Shown here piece by piece: positions 1-45,776 of a stretch of DNA of 64,000 nucleotides. The notes beneath the pieces are model-generated. The model ran no database searches and had not been told where the DNA came from. It saw only the letters and a program-made list of their open reading frames with translations. Source of the DNA: Heptranchias perlo (taxonomy: Eukaryota); NCBI RefSeq assembly GCF_035084215.1, contig NC_090357.1:19096001-19160000 (forward strand), given 5' to 3'. Position 1 is the first letter of the stretch, and each line of letters opens with the position of its first letter. The position numbers were made by a program, and so were the translations under genes.

Positions 1-27
1 GCAACACAGTCTCAACAAGCGGGAAAC
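1..27 (-). CDS. IgSF receptor paralog (gene B), start of exon 2 (probable V domain); runs off the window edge
   Basis: Acceptor ATTTTATTCCATCAG|G is identical to the acceptor of the gene A V exon (23686-23700). Phase-1 join gives G-FPLVETVL, aligning with G-VPHLGKVTQ. Confidence 0.8.
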
Positions 28-847: not shown

Positions 848-896
848 CTCGAACTCCTGTTTGTAAAATCAAAAACAGCTTCAGCAAGAGTTGCAT
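848..896 (-). CDS. IgSF receptor paralog (gene B), leader exon MQLLLKLFLILQTGVR(G)
   Basis: ATG at 896, hydrophobic signal peptide, 49 nt (phase 1), consensus donor AG|GTAAGT. Confidence 0.8.
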
Positions 897-8705: not shown

Positions 8706-9970
8706 TTGTAATCATACAGATGTGTGAAGGCTTTATTTCTTGTTTTGCAATTCCACATTGATTAAAAAAAACTTCCCTTATGAGCAGGCATTGAACATTT
8801 TATTACACTTCAACTTCTATTATCAAGCACAAATGCTTATGAAGAGCAAGTAGAAATGAATTGTTAGCTTGTGTCATTTGAATTATCAATAAAATAATGA
8901 AAACGAAAGTTATTTTAACAATATGATGCATTTTAAATGAAATCTTGAGATTTGTTGCGTAAAGATGGAAGGGCAGAGGAATTTACCATGTTGTCAGTCA
9001 CACTACTGATCGAAGATCACTCAGTAAATATTGGAGCATTGTGACTTTCAACAGTGTTCAATCATTTCTTCCATTGTAGAGGGTGAAAGTAAGAAAGTAA
9101 AAACAAGGAACCAGTCACCATTTTAAAGTATTTTTGTTCATACTTTTTTTTTCCCCATAACAGTTTTTTTGGACAATGCAGAGTAAGCTTCAAATGTTTG
9201 ATGATGACACTCTATTAGAAAGAGCAATGTAGCTTTTCATGTAAGACATTGTCGCAGTGAAAATAGTCAGCTCCTAAAATATAAAATTGAAGACTGTTTA
9301 GTTTGTAGAAATTAAGCAAAAATTATTTTAATAGCAAAGAAAACCAGAACAGAAAAAATATACAATAGGCCTGACATTCTGGGGCCAGTGAGGGTAGAAT
9401 TATAGTCTTTTTTGTACCCAAGTTTCTCTCATTCTCTGGTAATAAATATTATATGATCGTTTACTCTTCTTTCAGCAGATTTGCACCCACATTTTTCCTG
9501 TTATGATTGATGAATTTGTACTTCATTTAGCACTAGATATGGACACCACATTATCTAAATTCACAAGTCTCTGGTATGCATTTTCCTGCTGGTTAGGTTT
9601 GTATTGTGAGATAGTTTCACAAACAAGCAGAGAGGAACAAAATGGCTACCACCACTCCCTTGACCAACTCTACTTCCTCGAATTAGACCTTCCTCCTGGT
9701 TATTAACTAAATGGTAATTTAAACAATTCTGCACATATACACAAATACACTCACATGTCTTCAATAAAGCAATCTAACAGAAAGTTATATAACAATGAAC
9801 AACAGACTGATGCTCCACAGAGCAATTCATTTACTGAGGCATATTTCTAAAAGACAACAATGATTACATTAGGTGCGAAAGTTGCATTATTTTACCATTA
9901 CTGATTGAAAGGAAAATATCAATATCTTATAGCTTCTTGGAGACTTAAGCTTAATATTCTTACCTGTTAC

Positions 9971-10065
9971 TCAGCAATTAACCAAGCAGCTCAGTGTGGT
10001 TAGAATAAAAATGAATGCAGCAACAGCAATGAATCTTATAACAAAAATCCAAATCAAAGTGGAAT
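9971..10065 (-). CDS. IgSF receptor gene A, exon 5: transmembrane with Arg, stop, no cytoplasmic tail
   Basis: Acceptor CTTCTTGCAG, phase 1, translates (D)STLIWIFVIRFIAVAAFIFILTTLSCLVNC*. A donor AG|GTAAG follows 7 nt after the stop. Confidence 0.8.
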
Positions 10066-10341
10066 CTGCAAGAAGTTTGTGAAAGATCAGTTTGACATTT
10101 TTAAACAAAGAACCTTTAGCAAGTTTTAAAAAACAATACCAAGACTAAAGATCCCATCACTCCATTACACGCCACACCAAAAATATTCAAACTGGTGGAC
10201 AGAAACACCTCATTTCAATCTATCCTTACAAACTTCTGATCGACAGAAGTGAGGCAACCAAGATTTTTAAAAACCCAGTTGTTGTAGTTCAGGCTTCTTC
10301 CCCTCAGACTCCATCCGTGCTCACAACAACATGCAGTTTCT

Positions 10342-11042
10342 ACAATAAAAACAGAAAATGCTGGAGAAACTCAGCAGTTCAGGTGACATCGGTGGAGAGA
10401 GAAACGGACTTAACGTTTCAGATTGATGGCCTTTCATCACAACTGGAGGAAGTTGGAGATTTAACGGTTTATAAGCAAGTACAGAGCCAGGAAAAAAAAG
10501 CGGTGGGGGGTTCCATCCCACTCCCACTCTGATCTTTCTATCCTTGGCCTCCTACACTGTTCCAATTAAGCTCATCGCAAACTCAAGGAACAGCACCTCA
10601 TCTTTCCATTAGGCACTTTACAACCTTCCAGCCTTAACATTGAATTTAACACTAGATCTGAACCATTGCTCCCATTTTCTTGGACAGCAGGTGCTGGTTA
10701 TAGTACTGCTCTAACCATTTACATCTCCTCCGGGCCCATCTTTTGTTTCTTTATTGTCCCATTATCACCCCTTTTGCCTCACACCATCAACCCTTTTGTC
10801 ATTTCATCACTCCTGCCCTCCACCCAAACAGAGACCATCTCTTTTGTTTTTTCCACCCCCACCACCCCTATGTTCTGTACTTGCTTATAAATGTTAAATC
10901 TCTAACGTCTTCCAGTTCTGATGAAAGGTCATCGACCTGTAATGTTAACCCTGTTTCTCTCTCTACAGATACTGCCTGACCTGCTGAGTATTTTCTGCTT
11001 TTATTTCAGATTTCCAGCATCCACAGTATTTTGTTTTTGAGA
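10342..11042. mobile_element. Older Penelope-like element (family B), inverted structure, GIY-YIG C-terminal remnant
   Basis: About 10343-10460 is the reverse complement of about 10895-11005. 10545-10650 translates LGLLHCSN*AHRKLKEQHLIFPLGTLQPSSLNIEFN. Degenerate hammerhead CTGATGA-AAGGTCATCGACCT-G(T)AA at about 10918-10945. Confidence 0.8.
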
Positions 11043-11734
11043 CAGTTTCTGTAGGCTGTCCAAAATCTTGTGTCTGGGCTAGTACCTACCCTTTTACTGA
11101 GCTATCTCATACCGAAAGGTGCATGGAATGCCACCATGCACTCTTGGCCCCTTTGAAACATGAAAAAATCACGCTGTCAGGCCATATAATTCACACTAAA
11201 ATCAAATTTATTATAAGAAAAAAATTCACACAGAAGCAAAGCAAATTAATTCAGCTGAACAACATAAGAATTTCCTGACTTGAAAATAATAAAGCTCACT
11301 AGAATCTGCAAGTGTCTGTCCAGACTCTTAAAACAAAGTCCTTTGATGATCTTTTACACAAGACACCCACAGAATGGAGTCTCGTTATTGTAACACAGAA
11401 ATACAATTTCTGATATAAACAGCCAAAGGCTGCTCTTTGGATATACCCTTCACTTCACATGAAGAAGAGCCTAGCACCTTTTATGCTCCCGGTTCTTTCT
11501 CAACAGGCCAGTAACTATAATATTAATATTTCTATCATCTGAATAGATCATGATATGGATAGAAGGCCCATCACTGTCTGGGCAGATGTTTACAGGCTTG
11601 AAACAAGGTTTCTTGGAATTTCTGTCTGGCAAGTGTGACAATCACAGACAATGATCTCCATTCTTCTCACAGTAGTAAATATGCTGACAGTATAATTTCA
11701 TAAACTAGAGACATTAACCACTAATCTTAACCTG

Positions 11735-13516
11735 ATCCCTTATAGTCAGAAACGGGAGAATTTATAATGGGGAACAGAGAAATGACAGAGCAATTGAAGA
11801 AATACGTTGGTTCTGTCTTCACGGAAGAGGACACAAATAACTTCCCAGAAATGCTGGGGAACCAAGGGACTAGTGAGGAGGAATGAAAGGAAATTAGTAT
11901 TAGTATAAAATAGTGCTGGAGAAATTAATGGGACTGAAAGCCGATAAATCCCCAGGACCTGATAATCTGCATCCCAGAGTACTAAAAGAGGTAGCCATGG
12001 AAATAGTGGATGCATTAGTTGTCATCTTCCAAAATTCTATAGATTATAGAACAGTTCCTGCAGATTGGCGGGTGGCAAATGTAACGCCACTATTTAAAAA
12101 AGGAGGGAAAGAGAAAACAGGGAACTACAGACCGGTTAGCCTAACATCAGTAGTAGGGAAAATGCTAGAGTCTGTTATAAAGGATGTGATAACAGGACAC
12201 TTAGAAAATATCAAAGGGATTAGACAAAGTCAACATGGATTTATGAAAGGGAAATCATGTTTGACAAATCCACTGGAGTTTTTTGAGGATGTAACTGGTA
12301 GAATAGATGAGGGAGAACCAGTGGATGTGATTTATTTGGATTTTCAGAAGTCCCACATAAGAGGTTAGTGTGCAAAATGAAAGCACATGGGATTGGTGGT
12401 AACATTCTGGCATGGATTGAAAATTGGTTAACACACAGGAAACAGAGAGTAGGAATAAATGGTTCTTTCTCTGGGTGGCAGGCAGTGACTAGTGGGGTAC
12501 CGCAAGGATCAGTACTTGGGCCCTAGCTATTCACAGTATATATCAATGATTTGGATGAGGGAACCAAATGTAATATTTTCAAATTTGCTGATGACACAAA
12601 ACTAATTGGGATTGTGAGTTGTGAGGAGGATGCAAAGAGGCTTCAAGGCAATTTAGACAAGTTGAGTGAGTGGGCAAATACATGGCAGATGCAGTATAAT
12701 GTGGATAAATGTGAAGTTAGCCACTTTGGAAGGAAAAACAGAAAGGCAGAGTATTATTTAAATGGTGATAGATTGGGGAATGTTGATGTACAAAGAGACC
12801 TGTGTGTCCTTGTACACTAGTCGCTGAAAGCAAACATGCAGGTGCAGCAAGCAGTTGGGAAGACAAATGGTATGTTGGCCTTCATTGCAAGAAGATTTGA
12901 GTACAGGAGCAAGGATGTCTTACTGCAGTTATACAGGGCCTTGGTGAGACCACACCTGGAGTATTGTGTGCAGTTTTGGTCTCCTTACCTAAGAAAGGAT
13001 ATACTTGCCATAGAAGGAGTGCAGCGAAGGTTCACTAGACTGATCTCTGGGATGGTAGGACTGTCGTATGAGGAGAGATTGGGTCGACTAGGCCTGTATT
13101 CACTAGAGTTTAGAAGAATGAGGGGGATCTCATTGAAACATATAAAATTCTGACAGGGCTAGACAGACTGGATGCAGGGAGGATGTTTCCCCTGGCTGGG
13201 GGTCCAGAACAAGGGGTCATAGTCTCAGGAAATGGGGTAGGACATTTAGGACTGAGATGAGGAGAAATTTCTTTACTCAGAGGGTGGTGAACCTGTGGAA
13301 TTCTCTACCACAGAAGGCTTTGGAGGCCAAGTCACTGAATATATTTAAGAAGGAGCTAGATAGATTTCTAGACACAAAAGGCATCAAGGGGTATGGGGAG
13401 AGAGCGGGAATATGGTATTGAGATAGAGGATCAGCCATGATCATACTGAATGGCGGAGCAGGCTCGAAGGACCGAATGGCCTACTCCTGCTTCTATTTTC
13501 TATGTTTCTGTGTTTC
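11735..13516 (+). mobile_element. CR1 LINE, 5'-truncated, frameshifted ORF2
   Basis: ORFs 11913-12368, 12551-12820 and 12836-13153 carry RT motifs (FADDTK); (TTTCTATG)-type tail. Confidence 0.93.
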
Positions 13517-13902
13517 AATGGTTTTGTTTATCAGCAATAACATAAATAGATGCAAGTCACCTCCTCTTAATCTGTCAGATAGCCTCTTAATTTGGTAGTT
13601 ATTCTTCAGATCGTGTTGTGTATTCGGCTTCAAGGCAAAGGCAAAAGAATTCCTTTAAAACAACTCACAGATGTCCATTATAAACTCACAGCACATTATC
13701 TGAGCTATAGTTTTATACGAACAAGATATAAAATAGAAATATGTTATGTGTGATGAAGGATGCGGCCCACATCCATCACACCTTTACAATGTTTTGCAAA
13801 TTAAATTGCTGGATAGGGTGATTTTTGTCAGTTCATGTCACAGAATGTCACCTTATCAATTCATGCATCAAATTAATCATTCTTTGTTTAATTTCTATTT
13901 AC

Positions 13903-14223
13903 CTTCCTGTTCAGCTTTTATCCAAACACTTGCGTTTCCCCAGCCGTAGCTGTTGTTTGCCGTACACCAGTAGACTCCGCCATCTTCAGACTGCAAATGT
14001 TTTATCTTTACTATTGAACTATTTAATTCAGCTGCGATTTGTAACATCTCAGTGTGGTTTTCCCTGTCCTTCATCCAGATCAAAGAGGATGCTGGGTTAC
14101 TATCCACAGAGCATCTCAGTTCCAGGAATGAGTCAGGAGGGACAATGATGGGACTGCTGGTCACAGGATGGTAACTGTCTGTGTTGTTCAACCTGTATAT
14201 TATTTTGGGATCTTGTGGTCCAT
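13903..14223 (-). CDS. IgSF receptor gene A, exon 4: C2/I-set Ig domain
   Basis: AG at 14225-14224, GT at 13902-13901, 321 nt, phase 1-1. (Y)GPQDPKI..LRCSVDSNPASSLIW..DGGVYWCTANNSYG..KAEQE. Confidence 0.9.
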
Positions 14224-14429
14224 CTAACAGTAAAATGGAATTAAAAGATTTGTACCATGCTAACTACATAGAAAAGAACCTGAATTTACTACATTTGCAG
14301 AAATATAATAACTGTAAATTAATTCATAAATATATACAAGTTCATAGAATCATAGAATCATAGAAGTTACAACATGGAAACAGGCCCTTCGGCCCAACAT
14401 GTCCATGTCGCCCAGTTTATACCACTAAG

Positions 14430-17378
14430 CTAGTCCCAATTGCCTGCACTTGGCCCATATCCCTCGATACCCATCTTCCCCATGTAACTGTCCAAATGCT
14501 TTTTAAAAGACAAAATTGTACCCGCCTCTACTACTGCCTCTGGCAGCTCGTTCCAGACACTCACCACCCTTTGAGTGAAAAAATTGCCCCTCTGGATCCT
14601 TTTGTATCTCTCCCCTCTCACCTTAAATCTGTGCCCCCTCGTTATAGACTCCCCTACCTTTGGGAAAAGATTTTGACTATCGACCTTATCTATGCCCCTC
14701 ATTATTTTATAGACTTCTATAAGATCACCCCTTAACCTCCTACTCTCCAGGGAATAAAGTCCCAGTCTGTCTAACCTCTCCCTATAAGTCAAACCATCAA
14801 GTCCCGGTAGCATCCTAGTAAATCTTTTCTGCACTCTTTCTAGTTTAATAATATCCTTTCTATAATAGGGTGACCAGAACTGTACACAGTACTCCAAGTG
14901 TGGCCTCACCAATGCCCTGTACATCTTCAACAAAACATCCCAACTCCTGCATTCAATGTTCTGACCAATGAAACCAAGCATGCTGAATGCCTTCTTCACC
15001 ACCCTATCCACCTGTGACTCCACTTTCAAGGAGCTATGAATCTGTACTCCTAGATCTCTTTGTTCTATAACTCTCCCCAACGCCCTACCATTAACGGAGT
15101 AGGTCCTGGCCCGATTCGATCTACCAAAATGCATCACCTCACATTTATCTAAATTAAACTCCATCTGCCATTCATCGGCCCACTGGCCCAATTTATCAAG
15201 ATCCCGTTGCAATCCTAGATAACCTTCTTCACTGTCCACAATGCCACCAATCTTGGTGTCATCTGCAAACTTACTAACCATGCCTCCTAAATTCTCATCC
15301 AAATCATTAATATAAATAACAAATAACAGCGGACCCAGCACCGATCCCTGAGGCACACCGCTGGACACAGGCATCCAGTTTGAAAAACAACCCTCGACAA
15401 CCACCCTCTGTCTTCTGTCGTCAAGCCAATTTTGTATCCAATTGGCTACCTCACCTTGGATCCCATGAGATTTAACCTTATGTAACAACCTACCATGCGG
15501 TACCTTGTCAAATGCTTTGCTGAAGTCCATGTAGACCACGTCTACTGCACAGCCCTCATCTATCTTCTTGGTTACCCCTTCCAAAAACTCAATCAAATTC
15601 GTGAGACATGATTTTCCTCTCACAAAACCATGCTGACTGTTCCTAATTAGTCCCTGCCTCTCCAAATGCCTGTAGATCCTGTCCCTCAGAATACCCTCTA
15701 ACAACTTACCCACTACAGATGTCAGGCTCACTGGTCTGTAGTTCCCAGGCTTTTCCCTGCCGCCCTTCTTAAACAAAGGCACAACATTTGCTACCCTCCA
15801 ATCTTCAGGCACCTCACCTGTAGCGGTGGATGATTCAAATATCTCTGCTAGGGGACCCGCAATTTCCTCCCTAACCTCCCATAACGTCCTGGGATACATT
15901 TCATCAGGTCCCGGAGATTTATCTACCTTGATGCGCGTTAAGACTTCCAGCACCTCCCTCTCTGTAATATGTACACTCCTCAAGACATCACTATTTATTT
16001 CCCCAAGTTCCCTAACATCCATGCCTTTCTCAACCGTAAATACCGATGTGAAATATTCATTCAGGATCTCACCCATCTCTTGTGGTTCCGCACTTAGATG
16101 ACCTTTTTGATCCTTAAGAGGCCCTACTCTCTCCCTAGTTACCCTTTTGCCCTTTATGTATTTGTAGAAGCTCTTTGGATTCACCTTTGCCTGATCTGCC
16201 AAAGCAATCTCATATCCCCTTTTTGCCCTCCTGATTTCTCTCTTAACTCTACTCCGGCAATCTCTATACTCTTCAAGGGATCCACTTGATCCCAGCTGCC
16301 TATGCATGTCATATGCCTCCTTCTTATTTTTGACTAGTGCCTCAATCTCCCGAGTCATCCAAGGTTCCCTACTTCTACCAGCCTTGCCCTTCACTTTATA
16401 AGGAATGTGCTTACCCTGAACCCTGGTTAACACACTTTTGAAAGCCTCCCACTTACCAGACGTCCCTTTGCCTGCCAACAGACTCTCCCAATCAACTTCT
16501 GAAAGTTCCTGTCTAATACCATCAAAATTGGCCTTTCCCCAATTTAGAATTTTAACTTTTGGGCCAGACCTATCCTTCTCCATAGCTATCTTAAAACTAA
16601 TGGAATTATGATCACTGGTCCCAAAGTGATCCCTCACTAACACTTCTGTCACCTGCCCTTCCTTATTTCCCAAGAGGAGGTCAAGTTTTGCCCCCTCTCT
16701 AGTCGGGCCATCCACATACTGAATGAGAAATTCCTCCTGAATACACTCAACAAATTTCTCTCCATCCAAGCCCCTAATGCTATGGCTGTCCCAGTCAATG
16801 TTGGGAAAGTTAAAGTCCCCTACTATTACCACCCTATTTTTCTTGCAGCTGTCTGTAATCTCCTTACATATTTGCTCCTCAATTTCCCGTTGACTATTTG
16901 GGGGTCTGTAGTACAATCCTATCAAAGTGATCTCTCCCTTCTTATTTTTCAGTTCTACCCATATGGACTCAGTGGGCGAACCCTCGGATATATCCCCTCT
17001 CACTACTGCCGTGATGTTCTCCCTAATCAAGAACGCAACTCCCCCTCCTCTCTTACCTCCTGCTCTATCTTTCCTATAGCATCTGTACCCTGGAACATTG
17101 AGCTGCCAGTCCTGCCCCTCCCTTAGCCATGTTTCAGTAATAGCTATAACATCCCAGTCCCATGTACTCATCCATGCCCTGAGTTCATCTGCCTTGCCCA
17201 TCAGACTTCTTGCATTGAAATAAATGCAGTTTAATCTAGACTTCCCTTGGTCTTTGCCCTGCTTTCTCAGACCATCTGTCCGGTCATGTTCTGTACACTC
17301 TCCCTTACTGCCTTTTGTTTCTGTCACCACTTTATTTCCCACTGACTTCCTGCATCGGTTCCCATCCCCCTGCCACAT
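14430..17378 (-). CDS. CR1 ORF2: AP endonuclease + reverse transcriptase (982 aa from the ATG overlapping the ORF1 stop)
   Basis: YFNARSL, ITETW, GDFN and SDH endonuclease motifs; QGSVLGP and FADDTK RT motifs; no stops. Confidence 0.93.
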   Translation of the reverse strand: MWQGDGNRCRKSVGNKVVTETKGSKGECTEHDRTDGLRKQGKDQGKSRLNCIYFNARSLMGKADELRAWMSTWDWDVIAITETWLREGQDWQLNVPGYRCYRKDRAGGKRGGGVAFLIRENITAVVRGDISEGSPTESIWVELKNKKGEITLIGLYYRPPNSQREIEEQICKEITDSCKKNRVVIVGDFNFPNIDWDSHSIRGLDGEKFVECIQEEFLIQYVDGPTREGAKLDLLLGNKEGQVTEVLVRDHFGTSDHNSISFKIAMEKDRSGPKVKILNWGKANFDGIRQELSEVDWESLLAGKGTSGKWEAFKSVLTRVQGKHIPYKVKGKAGRSREPWMTREIEALVKNKKEAYDMHRQLGSSGSLEEYRDCRSRVKREIRRAKRGYEIALADQAKVNPKSFYKYIKGKRVTRERVGPLKDQKGHLSAEPQEMGEILNEYFTSVFTVEKGMDVRELGEINSDVLRSVHITEREVLEVLTRIKVDKSPGPDEMYPRTLWEVREEIAGPLAEIFESSTATGEVPEDWRVANVVPLFKKGGREKPGNYRPVSLTSVVGKLLEGILRDRIYRHLERQGLIRNSQHGFVRGKSCLTNLIEFLEGVTKKIDEGCAVDVVYMDFSKAFDKVPHGRLLHKVKSHGIQGEVANWIQNWLDDRRQRVVVEGCFSNWMPVSSGVPQGSVLGPLLFVIYINDLDENLGGMVSKFADDTKIGGIVDSEEGYLGLQRDLDKLGQWADEWQMEFNLDKCEVMHFGRSNRARTYSVNGRALGRVIEQRDLGVQIHSSLKVESQVDRVVKKAFSMLGFIGQNIECRSWDVLLKMYRALVRPHLEYCVQFWSPYYRKDIIKLERVQKRFTRMLPGLDGLTYRERLDRLGLYSLESRRLRGDLIEVYKIMRGIDKVDSQNLFPKVGESITRGHRFKVRGERYKRIQRGNFFTQRVVSVWNELPEAVVEAGTILSFKKHLDSYMGKMGIEGYGPSAGNWD

Positions 17379-17780
17379 TAGTTTAAACCCTCCCCAACAG
17401 CACTGGCAAACACTCCCCCTAGGACATTGGTTCCAGTCCTGCCCAGATGCAGACCGTCCAATTTGTACTGGTCCCACCTCCCCCAGAACCGGTTCCAATG
17501 GCCCAGGAATTTGAATCCCTCCAGCTTGCACCATCTCTCAAGCCACGTATTCATCTTAGCTATCCTGTCATTCCTACTCTGACTAACCCGTGGCACTGGT
17601 AGCAATCCTGAGATTACTACCTTTGAGGTCCTACTCTTTAGTTTAACTCCTAACTCCCTAAATTCAGCTTGTAGGACCTCATCCTGTTTTTTACCTATGT
17701 CGTTGGTGCCTATATGCACCACGACAACTGGCTGTTCACCCTCCCCCTCCAGAATGTCCTGCAGCCGCTCCGAGACATCA
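17378..17780 (-). CDS. CR1 ORF1 C-terminal part (SGNH/GDSL esterase-like), 5'-truncated
   Basis: VHIGTND and DGLH motifs; ends GEGLN*. Confidence 0.88.
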
Positions 17781-18262
17781 ACCCTTTTGTTTTATATTGA
17801 GAAAAAGACTCCTAGAGCAAGCTAGAAAAGTGTAGATGAGGTTAATCAGGTATTAGTTGTCAAGTGATGCCCAGTTTTGGTTTTTAAAGCCTGATGATTG
17901 TAAGAGGAAAGGAAGACTGAGATGTTGTACAATTTGGAGGTCTTGGTAGAGACTGAGTTACAGTAGGGGTCAGTGCGATGGGTTTTCAGTTCAACATAGA
18001 AGATAGGCGTAAAAGAAAGTGCTTGCAGAATGTCTTATTTGCAGTTTAGAAGTAACAAGGAGGAAGAGTTCAGACCATAGTAGCATTGATAAAATTGAGA
18101 GACAATTTAATAAATATTATAATCATACTTGCATTTCTGTAACAGAATGTTTCAAAGGCACATCACACGATGAATGAGTATAGTGACCGTTTTTTGTAGG
18201 AAAAATAACGTGGAAAGCCTGGTAATATACTAAGAATTACTGTGCTGTTAAAATAATAAAGA

Positions 18263-19034
18263 TGTACATGATCTCTCTCCCCTCCTGGGACTCCTGGGCG
18301 GTGTACAGGCATCGGATGGCCATGCTGGCTCAGACTATGGCGGTAGGGGCAGCCGAAGCCAGTTGAAACCCTGTTGTTTTAAAAACCCCACAGCAAGAAC
18401 TTCTCTGCCTTTTCCCTGAATGGTCAGAGTCTGACAAGACTGCCCTGCCGAACTCGGCAAGGAAGTGAAGCATGGCTTGAACCGAAAGTGACATAGCCAA
18501 GGTGATTGAAGCATGGCTTGGACAGGAAGAAACACAACGAGCACACATGAGTGCTGAAGAGGCACCAGACTGCAGATTAATCTAATCATGGCCCAGCACC
18601 AGCTAAACGAGGTACTTAACAAAAGGGACACTATAGGCCAAGGCCTGTACATGAGCAAAGGAACCAATTGAAGATTGGCCATGTAGCTGAGGCTGCATTA
18701 ATCGCCGGGCCCAACAGAATTGTGCATGAGGTGGCCATGCACTCAAAAGGTATGAGAGGGATGCCAAGTTCAGACCACACGGTGGAGAAGGACAATGAGC
18801 CAGGAAGGTTCCCTAAAGGCCAGAACAAGAACTTAAGGATACCGAGTCAGCACGCTCCGTCACCTAAGGGAAAAACGGGAAGTAAAGCCCATATAATACC
18901 TGTACATTACTGCCCTGTTTATTAAACTATATGGACGCATGTGTTTAATAAATCTTTCCCAGTTGTTTTGAACGAATTGGTCTTACTGTCAATTTGTGCC
19001 AGTCGCAACCTTAAAAGTAAGCAAAATTCTTACA
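18263..19034. mobile_element. Possible solo LTR
   Basis: About 770-bp GC-richer island with TG...CA ends and TATA/AATAAA-like motifs; no convincing TSD. Confidence 0.3.
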
Positions 19035-19089
19035 TTTCATGCAGTTGAACGCAACAACCATTCAAGGCCAGAGGTATCCCAAACCCTCC

Positions 19090-19400
19090 ATGCAGTGAAC
19101 AATTAGTTAATCTGTTTACTGTAGGTATTTGCTGCTAGGGGGATTATTGATCAGCACACTGGGTAACTACCTGCTTTTCCTCAATTAGAGCCACGGGATC
19201 ATCAGCATCGACCTGAACCAGCAGCCAGGACCTTGGTTTAACATACCCGAAGGACGGCACCTCCAGCAATGAAGCACATTCTCAGTACTCTATGTGACTT
19301 CCAGCCTAGATTATGAGGTCAAATCATGGCATGTAGTTAAAAGCCACAACTTTCTCGTGCAGGAGTGAGTGCGCTATTGAATGAACCAAACTGACGCAGT
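19090..19400 (-). mobile_element. Degenerate Deu-type SINE fragment
   Basis: GGTTTAACATCACCCGAAGGACGGCACCTCC..CAGCCTAGATTATG matches the SINE at 2540-2640. Confidence 0.65.
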
Positions 19401-19516
19401 TGTAAACTAAACCACAGACGAAAGTGGAATTGCTAATCGGACAGTGAGCATTTTTCTTATACCCTATATTCTTAAACATTACTAAAAATAACAATAATGT
19501 TAAGGATAATACTCAC

Positions 19517-19819
19517 ACAAAACATGTAGAATGACCTCATTTATTACTGGCTGTCTGAAAGTCACATGATTGATCTGACATCTACAGACGGTTCCGTGGT
19601 CTCTCACTTTAGGGACGATCTCAAGTCGGTTGGTGACAACAGATGTACCATCACCAGTTCTTTTTGTGATCAGTGTAGTGACGTTTGTGGAGATGTTTAT
19701 TCCATGACATGCCCAAATAAAGGAGATATTCTCAGAGTACAACCCCTTTGCAGAACAGGTCAGGCTGGACTTACGTCCAGCAACCAAAGCACCATCTACA
19801 ATAGAAACTTCAGGAGGTT
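19517..19819 (-). CDS. IgSF receptor gene A, exon 3: C1-like (SIRP/CD80-type constant) Ig domain
   Basis: AG at 19821-19820, donor GTGAGT at 19516, 303 nt, phase 1-1. LTCSAKGLYSENISFIW...VCRCQINHVTF. Confidence 0.9.
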
Positions 19820-20139
19820 CTGAGAGAGAGGACAAAACAGAATATATGAAACTATAAAGAACATATTCTACAGTGAATATTTATTAACATCATGTCCAGT
19901 GAAGTTAATGGCAACATTATTAGAGATTCATAGTGCTGCCATTCTGAAAATGTATTGAGTATCATAATGTAAAATAATTTATAGCTGAATAAATAGTTAA
20001 TTTTAAATTTAAATACACTTCGTTGTAGTTTCATGCAGAACCTGTTATTTTGGTTCAATGGAGACACAGCAGTAGTTAAAGTAGCCTTTTCTCTAGATCA
20101 AAAGAATCAAGAAACATAATATATGTTAGAGAATTACAC

Positions 20140-20379
20140 TAATGTCACTCTAGATCCCCGACAGACAGCTCCTTGGTCCCCCACTTTAGGAACAACCTCA
20201 AGCTGTCTGGTGACAACAGATGTACCATCACGAGTTCTTTTTGTGGTCAATGTAGTGACATTTGTAGAGATCTTTGTTCCATGATTTATCCAAGTAAAAG
20301 AGATATTCTCAGAGTAAAAGCCCTTGGCAGAGCAGGTACTGCAACCAATGCACCAGCCAAGTAGAAACTTCAGGAGGTT
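20140..20379 (-). pseudogene. Frameshifted tandem duplicate (pseudo-exon) of gene A exon 3
   Basis: Clear similarity to 19585-19860. Acceptor retained, deletions give TGA after 23 codons, 3' end and donor lost. Confidence 0.85.
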
Positions 20380-21299
20380 CTAGAGAAGGAGATAAAGTAC
20401 AATGCATGAAATTATGAGAAGGAAGAGCCAGAAATATTAAATGTTGGTACTGGCACGGTGGGTATATTTAAAAAATGGTTTCTAACTAAAGTTAAAATAG
20501 GTCCTCTGATGCTTTCTGCTGCATGTGACTACAAGATATGACAGCAAATAATCAGATTATCCATAATTGTATCAGTTAATTGCTACCCGATAAAATGCAG
20601 TAACCTGGTAAGTGTACTTTCAACATTGTCAGTTTTGGGCACATTTTGATATTGATTAATTCGACAGAAAGCTACTGCTACTGATGAATTAAAACACTTA
20701 TTTATCAAATAATTGTAAGAGATCCAAATAATTGAAGAAACTCTACATAATCTGACATGTTAGCAACATTGCAATGTAGCTTCGTCCAATATAGGCAGTA
20801 CGCCTGTCTGTTTTACACTGGAGTACTCCAGTAACCAGAGTGTAAGCTTAACAAAAGTTTGCAATTGTAAAAATTTCTGTAAGTTCCCTTGTTTTTAACA
20901 TGTTACAAATGAAAGGAAAATAAATAAACACTACAAAGGACGCCAGATGACATATGCACCCAAAGAGGCAGGTAGAAATAAATCTTCTGAGAGTCCCAGA
21001 AATAGAAAGATTTTTGGAAATTGCACGGTTTGTAAACTTGTCAATTTCTAGTGAAAAAATGAGTAAATTCTTCTCAGGAATTTTTTTCGAAATCTGTGAT
21101 ACAATGGTATAACTAGAAGTGAAGAATGTAACTTATTATAACCGGATAATTCAAAGACATGTTTTGTGTTTAAAAAATGGAATTATCCTGAAATTTGAAT
21201 TAAGTGATATAAATAATGAAGGAAAGTATACATTTTTGCCAGAAAAGTTGAATTATCAGATAATTTGAATTAAGTAACTTTGAGTTATGAGGATTAGAC

Positions 21300-21820
21300 T
21301 TTTTTTTATTCGTTCATGGGATGTGGACGTCACTGGCAAGGCCTTACTGCCCTTGAGAAGGTGGTGGTGAGCCGCCTTCTTGAATCGTTGCAGTCCGTGT
21401 GGTGAAGGTTCTCCCACAGTGCTATTAGGTAGGGAGTTCCAGGATTTTGACTCAGTGACGATGAAGGAACGGTGATATATTTCCAAGTCGGGATGGTGTG
21501 TGACTTGGAGGGGAACGTGCGGGTGGTAGTGTTCCCATGTGCCTGCTGCCCTTGTCCTTCTAGGTGGTAGAGTTCGCGGGTTTGGGAGGTGCTGTCGAAG
21601 AAGCCTTGGCGAGTTGCTGCAGTGCGTCCTATGTATGGTACACACTGCAGCCACGGTGTGCCGGTGGTGAAGGGAGTGAATGTTTAAGGTGGTGGGTGGG
21701 GTGCCAATCAAGGGGGCTGCTTTGTCCTGGATGGTGTTGAGCTTCTTGAGTGTTATTGAAGCTGCACTCATCGAGGCAAATGGAGACTATTCCATCACAC
21801 TCCTGACTTGTGCCTTGTAG
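21300..21820 (-). mobile_element. Non-LTR retrotransposon 3' end (non-CR1-type shark LINE)
   Basis: ORF 21256-21771 looks like a post-RT C-terminus (IQDKAA..WNSLP..FKKAAHHHLL) followed by an A-rich tail. Confidence 0.75.
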
Positions 21821-23337
21821 AAACTGTACTTACATTGCAAAATCAGCCACTGAAAATGTTTAAATGAAATTACTGCATTTGAAGCTACTAAATCAGATGC
21901 TACCAGGAATCAAATAACTTTTTTTTCTTAAATGCTGCAGCTGTGAATCACCATAAATCAAACATAATTTGTAAACTGTAAGGCGACTGTAACGTTAACA
22001 ATTGCATATCAAACAATATGTTTGGTTTACATAGTAATAGAGTTTGCCATATTTGATTGCATTAATGGCAATGACAGCTTGCATTGAGTTAGTACCTTTA
22101 ATAATGTAACAAAAATCGCATGGCACTTTGTATAAAAAGGCCCAATGGGTGAAGGCACCGATTGGCATACTGTGCAATTATATTTCTATTTTCATGCCAA
22201 TGGGCAGTAGTTTTTTTTTGCCTGCATTAATGCCACTCAAAAGTTGGGTTGGCGATCAGACTCCTTATACATTAAAGCAAGAATTGTGAGACCACCTCCA
22301 ACAACATGCCTTTAACGTAATAAAAAAGTCCCAGGGCACTTCACAGCATGGACATCAAGCAGTAATAGGAATGTTGGGAGAGACGCAGTAAGCTGAAAAG
22401 ATTTAGCAAGGGAGTCCAGAGAGTGGACCATGGTGGCTGTAATGGCTATGCATCAATGGCATATGGTGGGTGGGGGGGGGCAGTGTTAGAGATATACAGG
22501 TGGCCAGGATTGATGGACCAAAGGACATAGGCTATGATATAAGACTGGAGGAGATTGGAAAGTTGGTATGACGTGAGAACATGAAGGAATTTGTAAACTG
22601 GGGCAAGGAGTTTTGAAATTCCAATCGATAGTCTTTCACTACTTGGAGTTTGTTTCAGGTGTAGGTCAACTCTAGACCCTCATGAATCACATTTCAAAAG
22701 TGCCTGGGCACAGGATAATAAACGTTACCAGAGATCTCCTTTCTCATTGCTCCTAGTAAGTCAGATGAAACTCTTTTTTAACAGCAGTAGCATTATATTT
22801 ATAAAACGTACAATGTGTTATTCTGCTGTTAAAATGGAGCTGTGTTTAAGGCAGCCTGTCCATTTAAAGGCATATAATGCAGTTCCTATAAACAACCACA
22901 GTCTGAGGTTAGAGTTTCATTGCTATTTGGTGAGGAAAGTTTTCAGATTGAAAAGTGCGGATAAATTTTAAGGTTCCCATTAAAAAAAAACAGCCTGATT
23001 AGTTGTTTTTCTTCCTCTTTTTCAAACTTTTCACGCTTTGAAGTACAACATCCGAAGTGCGACATTTCAAAGCTTTTGGATGGAAATATAGATGAGAAAG
23101 TGGACTCCTGTACTCATTTCCTCACAACAGTAACAACTAGCTGCCCTATGCCTCTCTAGAAGCTTGTGTACAAGCGCACATGCACAGAGCCGAATAAGCA
23201 CAGCCTGTCCTACAATTTAGGTCTGCTAGTGCACACTGCATTAAGCCTGAGACTGGTATCTGTAGTTATATTATGTATGTGTGTAAAATATAAATGACGT
23301 TGTTATCTAACTGCAACACTATATGCAAATACTTTAC

Positions 23338-23685
23338 CATAAATCTGTATCCATGTTCCTTGTCCCCTTCTCTCTAACGGCGGGGAGACTGTCGGTATCT
23401 GCGCCAAACAGGTGTAATTATATTCAGAGTGATCAAAAGAAGCACGTTCAATCTTCAGTGATGCAATACAGTGGCTAAAACCACCCGGAGTACCGTCGGG
23501 AATGCAGATCAGGGTATTCTCTTCATTTTGAACATAAGGGGCCAGTGGAGATGTCTTGTACCAAGCTGTATAGACCCATTCACTATTAGTTCCATTATAA
23601 ATAAATGTACAGTTTATTGTGACTGACTTTCCTCTCAGGACACTGACCAGAGGCGGCTGAGTCACCTTCCCAAGGTGTGGGACAC
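23338..23685 (-). CDS. IgSF receptor gene A, exon 2: VJ-type V-set domain
   Basis: AG at 23687-23686, GT at 23337-23336, 348 nt, phase 1-1. VTQPP..VTINC..AWY..YTC..GQGTWIQI. Confidence 0.92.
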
Positions 23686-24222
23686 CTGATGGAATAAAAT
23701 GCATTATCTGCCAATCAAACACATCTACCGAAAACATTGTAAATCGAATCACACGATGAAACACAGCAGATGACACAAATTTCACAGTATTTACACAGGA
23801 AGAAAACAAATCAAAGTATTGTAATAACAAAATGTGTTAGGCGAATTTGACCTGGTATTTATTTTAGCAGTATATAATTATTCTGTAACAAGACCGGTCA
23901 AACTGAACAATCTGGATTTCAGTGCCTGACCCTCTCAATTAACAGACAGTATAAACCCTCACTGCAAATGTTGAGCCAGAGCTCTACTTACTGGAGGATT
24001 TTTCTATCATTTTATTCTATTGAAACAGGAACCAGTCAAAGAAATGTCTGTATTAACATATTAACTAACTTTATTTTGGAACTGTTATTCTGAACACTGT
24101 TATTGATCAATTCTTCAGCTGTACTTCAGAATACTCCGCACTTGTTGTCAGTAACAGCTACTTGTTGCCAGTAAATTTAATTCAAGGATTGAATGTTAAA
24201 AGACTTTAATCAGATCACTTAC

Positions 24223-24280
24223 CTACTATACTCGTCCCTGGAAGTAGAAGTGCGATCAGCTGCGCTAACATGCTTCCCAT
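24223..24280 (-). CDS. IgSF receptor gene A, exon 1: leader MGSMLAQLIALLLPGTSIV(G)
   Basis: ATG in AAAATGG context, 58 nt (phase 1), donor AG|GTAAGT. Confidence 0.85.
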
Positions 24281-24464
24281 TTTACTGTTCATTATATTCC
24301 TTCCTTTCAGATATTATACTTTATTGAGCTCTAATCCTGATTTCATACTTGTTTAGTACATGAGGGTGTCTCCTCTCTATTATTTGTATTTATTCCTGTA
24401 AGGGACGAACTGTGATATAAATACAGACACGATTCCTCTCATGAACCAAGTTTAATGACAGGAG

Positions 24465-43529: not shown

Positions 43530-45776
43530 TGTAAAAGGAGAGTCCGAGAGTGGGAGGAGAGTCCAAGAGGTGAGCGCAGTGTAAAAGGAGAGTCCAAGAG
43601 GTGAGCGCAGTGTGGGAGGAGAGTCCAAGAGGTGAGCGCAGTGTGGGAGGAGAGTCCGAGAGGTGAGCGCAGTGTGGGAGGAGAGTCCGAGAGGTGAGTG
43701 CAGTGTGGGAGGAGAGTCCGAGAGGTGAGTGCAGTATAAAAGGAGAGTCCGAGAGGTGAGCGCAGTGTGGGAGGAGAGTCCGAGAGGTGAGTGCAGTGTG
43801 GGAGGAGAGTCCGAGAGGTGAGTGCAGTATAAAAGGAGAGTCCGAGAGGTGAGTGCAGTGTGGGAGGAGAGTCCGAGAGGTGAGCGCAGTGTGGGAGGAG
43901 AGTCCGAGAGGTGAGTGCAGTGTAAAAGGAGAGTCCAAGAGGTGAGCGCAGTGTGGGAGGAGAGTCCAAGAGGTGAGCGCAGTGTGGGAGGAGAGTCCGA
44001 GAGGTGAGCGCAGTGTGGGAGGAGAGTCCGAGAGGTGAGTGCAGTGTGGGAGGAGAGTCCGAGAGGTGAGTGCAGTATAAAAGGAGAGTCCGAGAGGTGA
44101 GTGCAGTGTAAAAGGAGAGTCTGAGAGGTGAGTGCAGTGTAAAAGGAGAGTCCGAGAGGTGAGTGCAGTGTGGGAGGAGAGTCCGAGAGGTGAGTGCAGT
44201 GTGGGAGGAGAGTCCGAGAGGTAAGTGCAGTGTGGGAGGAGAGTCCGAGAGGTGAGTGCAGTGTGGGAGGAGAGTCCGAGAGGTGAGTGCAGTGTAAAAG
44301 GAGAGTCCGAGAGGTGAGTGCAGTGTGGGAGGAGAGTCCGAGAGGTGAGCGCAGTGTGGGAGGAGAGTCCGAGAGGTGAGTGCAGTGTGGGAGGAGAGTC
44401 CGAGAGGTAAGTGCAGTGTGGGAGGAGAGTCCGAGAGGTGAGTGCAGTGTGGGAGGAGAGTCCGAGAGGTGAGTGCAGTGTGGGAGGAGAGTCCGAGAGG
44501 TAAGTGCAGTGTGGGAGGAGAGTCCGAGAGGTGAGTGCAGTGTGGGAGGAGAGTCCGAGAGGTAAGTGCAGTGTGGGAGGAGAGTCCGAGAGGTGAGCGC
44601 AGTGTAAAAGGAGAGTCCGAGAGGTGAGCGCAGTGTGGGAGGAGAGTCCGAGAGGTGAGTGCAGTGTGGGAGGAGAGTCCGAGAGGTGAGCGCAGTGTAA
44701 AAGGAGAGTCCGAGAGGTGAGCGCAGTGTGGGAGGAGAGTCCGAGAGGTGAGTGCAGTGTGGGAGGAGAGTCCGAGAGGTAAGTGCAGTGTGGGAGGAGA
44801 GTCCGAGAGGTGAGTGCAGTGTGGGAGGAGAGTCCGAGAGGTAAGTGCAGTGTGGGAGGAGAGTCCGAGAGGTGAGTGCAGTGTGGGAGGAGAGTCCGAG
44901 AGGTGAGTGCAGTGTGGGAGGAGAGTCCGAGAGGTGAGCGCAGTGTGGGAGGAGAGTCCGAGAGGTGAGCGCAGTGTAAAAGGAGAGTCCGAGAGGTGAG
45001 CGCAGTGTGGGAGGAGAGTCCGAGAGGTGAGTGCAGTGTGGGAGGAGAGTCCGAGAGGTGAGTGCAGTGTGGGAGGAGAGTCCGAGAGGTGAGCGCAGTG
45101 TAAAAGGAGAGTCAGAGAGGTGAGTGCAGTGTAAAAGGAGAGTCCGAGAGGTGAGTGCAGTGTAAAAGGAGAGTCCGAGAGGTGAGTGCAGTGTAAAAGG
45201 AGAGTCCGAGAGGTGAGTGCAGTGTGGGAGGAGAGTCCAAGAGTGGGAGGAGAGTCCGAGAGGTGAGTGCAGTGTGGGAGGAGAGTCCAAGAGTGGGAGG
45301 AGAGTCCGAGAGGTGAGCGCAGTGTAAAAGGAGAGTCCGAGAGCGAGAAGAGAGTCCGAGAGGTGAGTGCAGTGTCAAAGGAGAGTCCGAGAGCCGGAGG
45401 AGAGTCCGAGAGCGGGAGGAGAGTCCGAGAGGTGAGCGCAGTGTAAAAGGAGAGTCCGAGAGGTGAGTGCAGTGTGGGAGGAGAGTCCAAGAGTGGGAGG
45501 AGAGTCCGAGAGGTGAGTGCAGTGTGGGAGGAGAGTCCAAGAGTGGGAGGAGAGTCCGAGAGGTGAGCGCAGTGTAAAAGGAGAGTCCGAGAGCGAGAAG
45601 AGAGTCCGAGAGGTGAGTGCAGTGTCAAAGGAGAGTCCGAGAGCCGGAGGAGAGTCCGAGAGCGGGAGGAGAGTCCGAGAGGTGAGCGCAGTATAAAAGG
45701 AGAGTCCGAGAGGTGAGCGCAGTGTAAAAGGAGAGTCTCGAGAGCAGGAAGAGAGTCCGAGAGGTGAATGCAATGT
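43530..45776 (+). repeat. 31-bp tandem array (about 70 units), GAGAGTCCGAGAGGTGAGYGCAGTGT(GGGAG/AAAAG)
   Basis: Direct periodicity, 31-aa periodic antisense ORFs, and a 250-bp higher-order duplication near 45240-45720. Confidence 0.97.

Follow-up and report, generated by a model that had tools for sequence, protein, structure and literature searches.

A cluster of related receptor genes

We analysed 64,000 nucleotides of repeat-rich DNA from the shark Heptranchias perlo (G000:C36:19096001-19160000, where G000 is the genome searched and C36 the contig), a stretch referred to below as the window. Its minus strand carries, at window 9971-24280, gene A, which encodes a predicted membrane receptor of immunoglobulin (Ig) type; a tandem twin, gene B, and an opposite-strand relative, gene C, lie on the same contig. 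Gene A consists of five exons with a total of 1125 nt, encoding 374 amino acids, and all four introns are phase 1 with GT-AG ends and pyrimidine-rich acceptors. Exon 1 (24223..24280, 58 nt, alternative ATGs at 24292 and 24271) encodes the signal peptide, exon 2 (23338..23685, 348 nt) a VJ-type V domain, exon 3 (19517..19819, 303 nt) a C1-set Ig domain, exon 4 (13903..14223, 321 nt) an I/C2-set Ig domain like Siglec stalk domains, and exon 5 (9964..10065, 102 nt when counted to its donor; coding part 10065-9971, 95 nt) a transmembrane (TM) helix with Arg354. The stop codon, directly behind Cys374, occupies 9973-9971, and a strong phase-1 donor follows 7 nt downstream (after 9964). This model reproduces the one proposed in a preliminary description of the letters, including the Arg near the N-terminal side of the TM segment and the end of the protein just after it. 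It is identical to the database protein P0001, labelled Heptranchias perlo 'sialic acid-binding Ig-like lectin 14', apart from the start of the latter at Met4; an in-frame ATG also lies 12 nt upstream.

The reading frame is not a chance one, since Pfam recognises Ig domains in exons 2-4 (V-set/Ig, weakly at 22 bits; C1-set; I-set/Ig_3) and 14 shark proteins among 2167 candidates are homologous at E<=0.001. Furthermore, a contig from a related organism (X4 record 31) joins the V to the C1 exon at the gene A borders with the intron absent; it differs from gene A by 59 and 27 letters and so represents a homologue, from one sample and possibly of RNA origin. The gene A model is confirmed as real; no read spans its TM exon, and use of the donor behind the stop or of another tail exon is accordingly unseen.

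Searching the genome with each gene A exon returned three intact genes and two broken pieces on C36. Gene B (database protein P0009) stands in tandem to gene A and has the same V-C1-I ectodomain. Its signal peptide exon (848..896, minus strand) and the start of its V exon (1..27, minus strand) lie inside the window, and its C1, I, TM and cytoplasmic exons lie outside, within G000:C36:19033795-19096000 on the same strand. The TM segment of gene B is uncharged, and its cytoplasmic region carries one immunoreceptor tyrosine-based switch motif (ITSM), TVYAEV, and two inhibitory motifs (ITIMs), VSYADI and SEYSVV. The two genes are 59% identical in the V, 85% in the C1 and 75% in the I domain, and a tblastn search with gene B found no tail exon between them. 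Gene C (G000:C36:19186430-19198578, L017-L018, plus strand) is arranged head-to-head and has an Arg at the outer TM edge with a short tail of ~45 residues. This Arg is kept in 7/7 C-type forms, within the TM pattern Arg-x-V-T-x-P-x-F-V, and C-type genes extend to gar, bowfin and paddlefish. The tails of gene C homologues showed neither an ITIM nor an ITSM, and gene C may be a second activating form; a scan for its leader exon gave no convincing candidate.

One broken piece is a C1-exon duplicate in intron 2 of gene A (20161-20415, minus strand), which is 78% identical with 19 gaps, has a broken frame and lacks its 3' end; neither this copy nor the donor behind the gene A stop figured in the preliminary description. 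The other is a pseudo-V exon interrupted by a stop and a frame break (G000:C36:19178700-19179064, L004/L016, plus strand), 7 kb before the gene C V exon. A lone V-type exon with weak pIgR/IgLON likeness (L022:9604-9969, minus strand) lies 45 kb beyond gene C.

Domain architecture of the gene A product

The product of gene A has the features of a type I membrane glycoprotein with three Ig domains, an Arg in the TM segment and no cytoplasmic tail. The V exon is unsplit, so that no rearrangement would be needed to form its germline VJ-type domain, and it holds the GQGT G strand, the Pro-rich FG loop IPTVSPP and, beside Cys45/Cys112, the extra pair Cys80/Cys92, all as first described. The extra cysteine of the E strand occurs in 24/24 aligned family members and that of the D strand in 21 of them. 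Because the structure model sets Cys80 and Cys92 on the neighbouring D and E strands, the pair is likely to form a disulfide. The most hydrophobic 19-mer spans residues 347-365; Arg354 is its eighth residue and falls in the outer half of the TM helix.

The second domain had been called C1-like, and its assignment as a true C1 domain is borne out by several comparisons: the C1-set score in Pfam is 32.8 bits (cut-off 21) versus 19.5 for C2-set_2, the solved-structure matches include UrIg2, IgE Fc, B7-H6, SIRPgamma and MHC IIbeta, and the family profile of this domain scores C1 exons at 43-49 bits versus 16-22 for Siglec domain 2 exons. The third domain matches I-set/Ig_3 in Pfam, with no C1-set match. 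All seven of its non-family matches in the genome lie on contig C45, which holds 27/30 Siglec-V hits, with 0/30 on C36. By these matches the third domain is Siglec-stalk-like, in line with the mosaic build with a Siglec-like last domain that had been suggested at the outset.

A predicted inhibitory twin and the origin of the membrane exon

Rather than the lone gene first described, gene A appears to form an activating/inhibitory pair with gene B, and the family of this pair is conserved among jawed fishes. Its designation as an activating-type receptor holds up on sequence grounds: it has an Arg-bearing TM segment and no tail, and it stands next to an ITIM/ITSM-bearing twin. The two thus resemble paired receptors elsewhere in being adjoining genes with closely related ectodomains, one a tailless form with a basic TM segment and the other a form with inhibitory motifs.

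The TM exon of gene A, counted to the donor behind its stop, has 102 nt, exactly as in gene B. An alignment of the two exons scores 59, above the maximum of 49 among 500 shuffles. The equal length and this alignment indicate that gene A stems from a B-type gene that acquired an Arg and a stop, its TM exon being a copy of a B-type TM exon that retains the old donor. Derivation of this exon from gene C was ruled out by DNA alignment, which 211/500 shuffles matched or beat.

Tailless A-type proteins with an Arg in the TM segment are also annotated in a sawshark (P0010) and in two catsharks (P0014, P0194/P0060). Identity among the TM segments of these proteins is 57-81%, against 14-46% with shark B-type TM segments, and gene A shares its leader with the catshark orthologue P0194, unlike the gene B leader. 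In S. torazame the A and B models lie on a single contig under successive locus tags, and their identity falls from 91% in V and 84% in C1 to 53% in I and 33% in TM. In addition, the approximately unbiased (AU) test rejects the grouping of the three A-type V domains as one clade (p-AU 5e-74). This gradient and the rejected clade indicate that the outer domains have been exchanged, and so homogenised, between activating and inhibitory partners. In the coelacanth, identity between the Arg form and the ITIM form is 96-98% in the extracellular part and 60% in the TM segment; on this comparison the Arg form has an origin separate from shark A. Ectodomain exchange between partners, another feature of paired receptors, is thus seen in both the catshark and the coelacanth pairs. 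At least one ITIM is present in 12/13 long-tailed homologues examined. One B-type model, P0002 of the epaulette shark, has two tandem V domains.

Between genes A and B of Heptranchias perlo, dS is similar across the V, C1 and I exons (0.13-0.20). In pairwise counts, dN/dS is 1.8-2.2 in V, 0.55-0.66 in C1 and 0.60-0.77 in I, and the V exon has dN<=dS in 0.15-1.75% of 2000 bootstraps. Such a pattern matches that of pathogen-driven receptor pairs, CEACAM1/CEACAM3 being an example (PMC2832619).

An apparently unnamed family with a CD28-like V domain

Among 150 listed hits, 30 were looked up, of which 28 are family members and two are of Siglec type. The members come from sharks, rays, coelacanth, reedfish/bichir, paddlefish, gar, bowfin, bonefish, tarpon, conger and arowana, and their V domains form one clade (support 96/90). 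No tetrapod or euteleost member appeared among these 30 or among 22 further hits; giant multi-Ig proteins take up much of the list, which therefore does not demonstrate absence from these groups. Automatic names vary among Siglec, MAG, SIRP, CADM and hemicentin, and the ESM Atlas offered only generic Ig and Siglec-like clusters. None of the family's accessions stands in tables S2 and S4 of a 2024 CD28-family survey (PMC11599192). We found no account of the family in the literature; subscription papers on shark NCR3, PRARP and UrIg lay outside our coverage, and an earlier mention there is possible. The V-C1-I receptors that sharks, rays, coelacanth and early-branching bony fishes have in common therefore form an apparently unnamed family, and, as had been anticipated, gene A could be assigned no one-to-one orthologue among characterised genes.

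The family V profile was ranked over 55 of the 56 V loci fetched from the genome. Four CD28-type exons came first (44.1-53.6 bits), followed by two exons that we take to be NCR3-like (38.2 and 30.3 bits); below these stood nectin V exons and Ig/T-cell receptor (TCR) V exons at 10-32 bits, the Ig/TCR exons being lowest. When a paddlefish family V domain was searched against the same genome, genes A, B and C were followed by a CD28X-motif exon and a CD28H exon, and then by a VJ cluster on contig C18 and one CD28-type exon. The CD28H label reflects a match of 18/20 residues in the third complementarity-determining region (CDR3) with the epaulette-shark row of table S4 (PMC11599192). In 17/21 parsed family rows, the loop running from the F-strand Cys to GxG has 14 residues, the same length as in the shark CD28 and CD28H rows of that survey. 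Gene A itself has PP plus GQG, a Pro-rich CDR3 ending in GxG, so the CD28-type Pro-rich FG loop of the preliminary description is retained. Of the NCR3/CD28H-like head that it proposed, the CD28 part is favoured by profile score and the NCR3 part scores lower. We infer, less firmly than the signalling roles proposed below, that the V domain is a relative of the CD28 family and binds via its FG-loop face. Two CD28-type V exons with PPP loops, at L106 (C27:44.9 Mb) and L144 (C11:54.4 Mb), correspond to no certain named member.

The likeness to the CD28/CTLA4 family has clear bounds. With CD28, CTLA4, ICOS, CD28H, CD28HL1-3, CD28X and PD-1 the shark family shares a VJ-type V domain, GxG and the length of a Pro-rich FG loop, and ITIM/ITSM tails like that of gene B occur in PD-1 and CD28HL3. 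However, all nine of these members have a single extracellular V domain (PMC11599192), whereas gene A has three Ig domains, and the shark family is built as V-C1-I with a D-E cysteine pair, occupies another locus and has a form predicted to couple to an adaptor.

Proposed function and alternative explanations

We consider it quite probable that, within an undescribed family of paired V-C1-I immune receptors of jawed fishes, gene A encodes the activating member. By their defining features, the family members appear to be paired Ig-superfamily receptors that belong to none of the Siglec, CD28, NCR3 and SIRP families. Arg354 would dock on the paired Asp residues of a dimer of CD3zeta or FcRgamma type. 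By analogy, and given that gene A is activating, such docking would likely lead to ITAM (immunoreceptor tyrosine-based activation motif) and Syk/ZAP70 signalling on ligand binding. An Arg near the TM top binds the Asp pair of zeta/FcRgamma dimers in CD89, and NKp30 and NKp46 are treated alike by assumption (PMC13107469). A zeta-type TM exon exists in the genome, and a CD3 Pfam search of the genome gave no match; complex prediction of the gene A TM segment with a dimer of the zeta-type segment (scores 0.08 and 0.07) spoke neither for nor against docking. Gene B would recruit SHP-1/SHP-2 via its ITSM and ITIMs, and the two receptors would then act oppositely on the same leukocyte with overlapping ligands. 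Gene B possibly recognises a self ligand such as a B7-type protein, a guess drawn from the CD28-like loop. Gene A might tune the gene B signal or, as a decoy, sense microbes or altered ligands that exploit gene B. The decoy role is a guess from the selection pattern and would explain both the repeated conversion and the diversifying V domain.

Several observations weigh against this interpretation. Three of the four CD28-type exons were chosen through their likeness to the family V domain, which favours their scores, and the shark V domain has no exact PPP/EIP motifs, bony-fish members keeping IP only. The V tree groups the family with three CD28-type exons weakly (82/67, 86/71) and places the fourth elsewhere. 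AU tests also allow a clade of the family with the NCR3-like exons (p 0.21), with the C18 VJ cluster (p 0.31) or with rearranging Ig/TCR V exons (p 0.054). Fold searches do not discriminate between families: the full gene A model (pLDDT 71.5) retrieved MAG, nectin-1 and CD22, and the V model (pLDDT 90.8) retrieved tied I-set and V-set rows at Z 11-12.6 plus antibody light chains; NKp30 and CTLA-4 were missing among the rows shown, which excludes nothing. The V dN/dS value is a single simple pairwise count and one of five comparisons. No FcRgamma exon was clearly found in the genome, and the read data from related organisms contained no transcript of gene A itself and none spanning the TM exon.

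The best of the alternatives, though an improbable one, is that gene A is a receptor of the NCR3/NKp30 lineage with an added stalk, activating natural killer (NK) cells through a B7-H6-type ligand. Both have a germline VJ domain in a single exon, an Arg high in the TM segment and presumed zeta/gamma coupling; NCR3-like exons rank second after CD28-type exons, and the tree test tolerates the clade. However, NCR3 has one VJ domain only, against three Ig domains in gene A, and the NCR3-like exons, a label that we assume, have an FG loop of 11 rather than 14 residues and lie on another contig, C42; partial searches also gave no MHC-paralogon marker on the gene A contig. Moreover, the Arg would not be an inheritance from NCR3, as its position had first suggested, but an independent gain in an exon derived from the uncharged TM exon of the inhibitory twin.

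Slightly less credible is the possibility that gene A is a truncated, non-signalling duplicate, either a membrane decoy competing with gene B or a decaying gene. Its stop stands just ahead of an intact ancestral donor, a broken C1 copy lies in its intron and a pseudo-V exon nearby, the A-type form did not turn up for several sharks searched, and its expression is unseen. Against this possibility, four shark species from two superorders retain the Arg and lack the tail, with differing stop positions, the frames are open and dN/dS is below 1 in C1 and I; a pure decoy would not need the Arg.

We regard it as unlikely, to a further degree, that genes A and B are a SIRP-type pair, like SIRPalpha/SIRPbeta, that reads a self marker on phagocytes. 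The family profile matches the solved structures of SIRPalpha and SIRPgamma over V and C1 (E 1.7e-36 and 8.9e-33), the V(J)-C1 start, the activating/inhibitory pairing and the multi-ITIM tail of gene B are shared, and the clade with the C18 VJ exons is not rejected by the tree test. SIRPs are, however, built as V-C1-C1, whereas the third domain of gene A is I-set/Ig_3, and activating SIRPbeta carries a mid-TM Lys that pairs with DAP12, in contrast to the Arg near the TM top of gene A. A separate and larger SIRP-like candidate exists in the C18 cluster. This large cluster of germline VJ and C1 exons, present in many copies (G000:C18 2.7-5.2 Mb and 15.4-15.6 Mb; L029-L034, L108-L110), is a candidate SIRP- or PRARP-like multigene family. 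Another array of joined-VJ exons lies at G000:C8:1.24-1.95 Mb (L113, L115, L120, L121, L125, L128, L139, L141), with one match inside an open frame of 1325 codons.

Genomic neighbourhood and the antigen-receptor question

Within 300 kb of the locus on C36 lie LIM2 (PDB 9cbv match, E 4e-28), a CBS-like gene, a multi-exon gene with no Pfam match that we read as mesothelin/otoancorin-like, a V exon at 19.24 Mb that is unrelated, and a homeobox gene, recognised by Pfam, that we take to be BSX. Human BSX is at 11q24.1 (PMC2211742). The contig also bears a nectin-1 exon. On C45, nectin-like exons occur as well, and a second, frame-broken LIM2 exon 1 (L166, C45:13.17 Mb), which is an assembly error or a pseudogene, lies ~20 kb from a Siglec V exon. 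C36 and C45 would thus be paralogous segments of nectin/Siglec type, whose human counterparts are presumably 11q23-25 and 19q13. In partial searches for MHC-paralogon markers, C36 held 0/9 PBX, 0/4 BET and 0/10 A2M-receptor hits, and two BET hits fell on small unplaced contigs. The gene A locus therefore seems to lie outside the classic MHC paralogons, with LIM2 rather than an MHC marker as its neighbour.

Hagfish APAR and teleost NITR, like genes A and B, have paired signalling forms and an unsplit VJ exon. That gene A is a relic of the VJ-C1 gene ancestral to Ig and TCR is very unlikely. Its unsplit VJ exon is followed by a true C1 domain, the latter matching UrIg2, IgE Fc and B7-H6; C1 is shared with UrIg and PRARP, the family V profile also matches Ig light chains in PDB, and a clade with rearranging V exons narrowly escapes rejection in the tree test. 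On the other side, C36 gave no marker hit, the only candidate recombination signal sequence was one poor match, and the family profile gives its lowest scores to Ig/TCR V exons. UrIg and UrIg2, which form dimers made in liver and gill, have all constant domains of C1 type and are linked to the MHC or antigen-receptor loci, unlike gene A, in the passages covered (PMC12227049); within the same passages, no described UrIg, PRARP or similar gene combines VJ-C1-I with an Arg/ITIM pair. Gene A is thus unlikely to be a direct antigen-receptor precursor, and the relevance to such precursors raised in the preliminary description is weak, given the missing markers and a third domain that is not C1.

CD33-related Siglecs, MAG and CD22 show the same V-C-C layout, a similar third domain and ITIM tails, and Siglecs share partner homogenisation (the Siglec-5/14 pair) and LIM2 as a neighbour. 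The V domain of Siglecs has an F-strand Arg that binds sialic acid and an extra B-strand Cys, with no F-strand Cys; the C45 Siglec exons have both F-R and the extra B-strand Cys. Despite the database name 'Siglec-14', the Siglec-like third domain and the adjoining LIM2, the idea that gene A is a true Siglec binding sialic acid can practically be set aside, because the F-strand Cys is present in 24/24 family V domains, an Arg after it in 0/24 and the extra B-strand Cys in 0/24; its second domain is by profile a true C1, its locus is on C36, and shark Siglecs are on C45. On these signatures the database name is wrong.

The reading of gene A as the activating half of a paired V-C1-I family permits a broader and more speculative proposal, which we hold as doubtful: an ancient checkpoint pair of jawed vertebrates, lost from mammals, with a CD28-type VJ head, an antigen-receptor-type C1 domain and a Siglec-type stalk and ITIM tail, on a segment paralogous to the Siglec cluster (with LIM2 and nectin flanks) and with a B7-type ligand. 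If true, the CD28 lineage would gain its first branch with several domains and adaptor coupling, and activating partners would have arisen at least three times (shark A, coelacanth and type C). NK and myeloid receptors of sharks are poorly mapped, and single-exon VJ genes are sought for the origins of antigen receptors and co-stimulation. The compact, conserved three-gene locus, masked by wrong automatic names, provides, at the base of the jawed vertebrates, an activating/inhibitory pair that can be tested, as well as readable steps by which an activating receptor would be born from an inhibitory exon; it also suggests that VJ-C1 assembly occurred outside MHC-linked regions.

Elsewhere in the window, intron 3 of gene A holds an apparently intact frame of 1035 codons (14430-17537, minus strand) that by its look encodes the endonuclease and reverse transcriptase of a long interspersed nuclear element, and a 31-bp minisatellite of about 70 copies spans 43550-45744.

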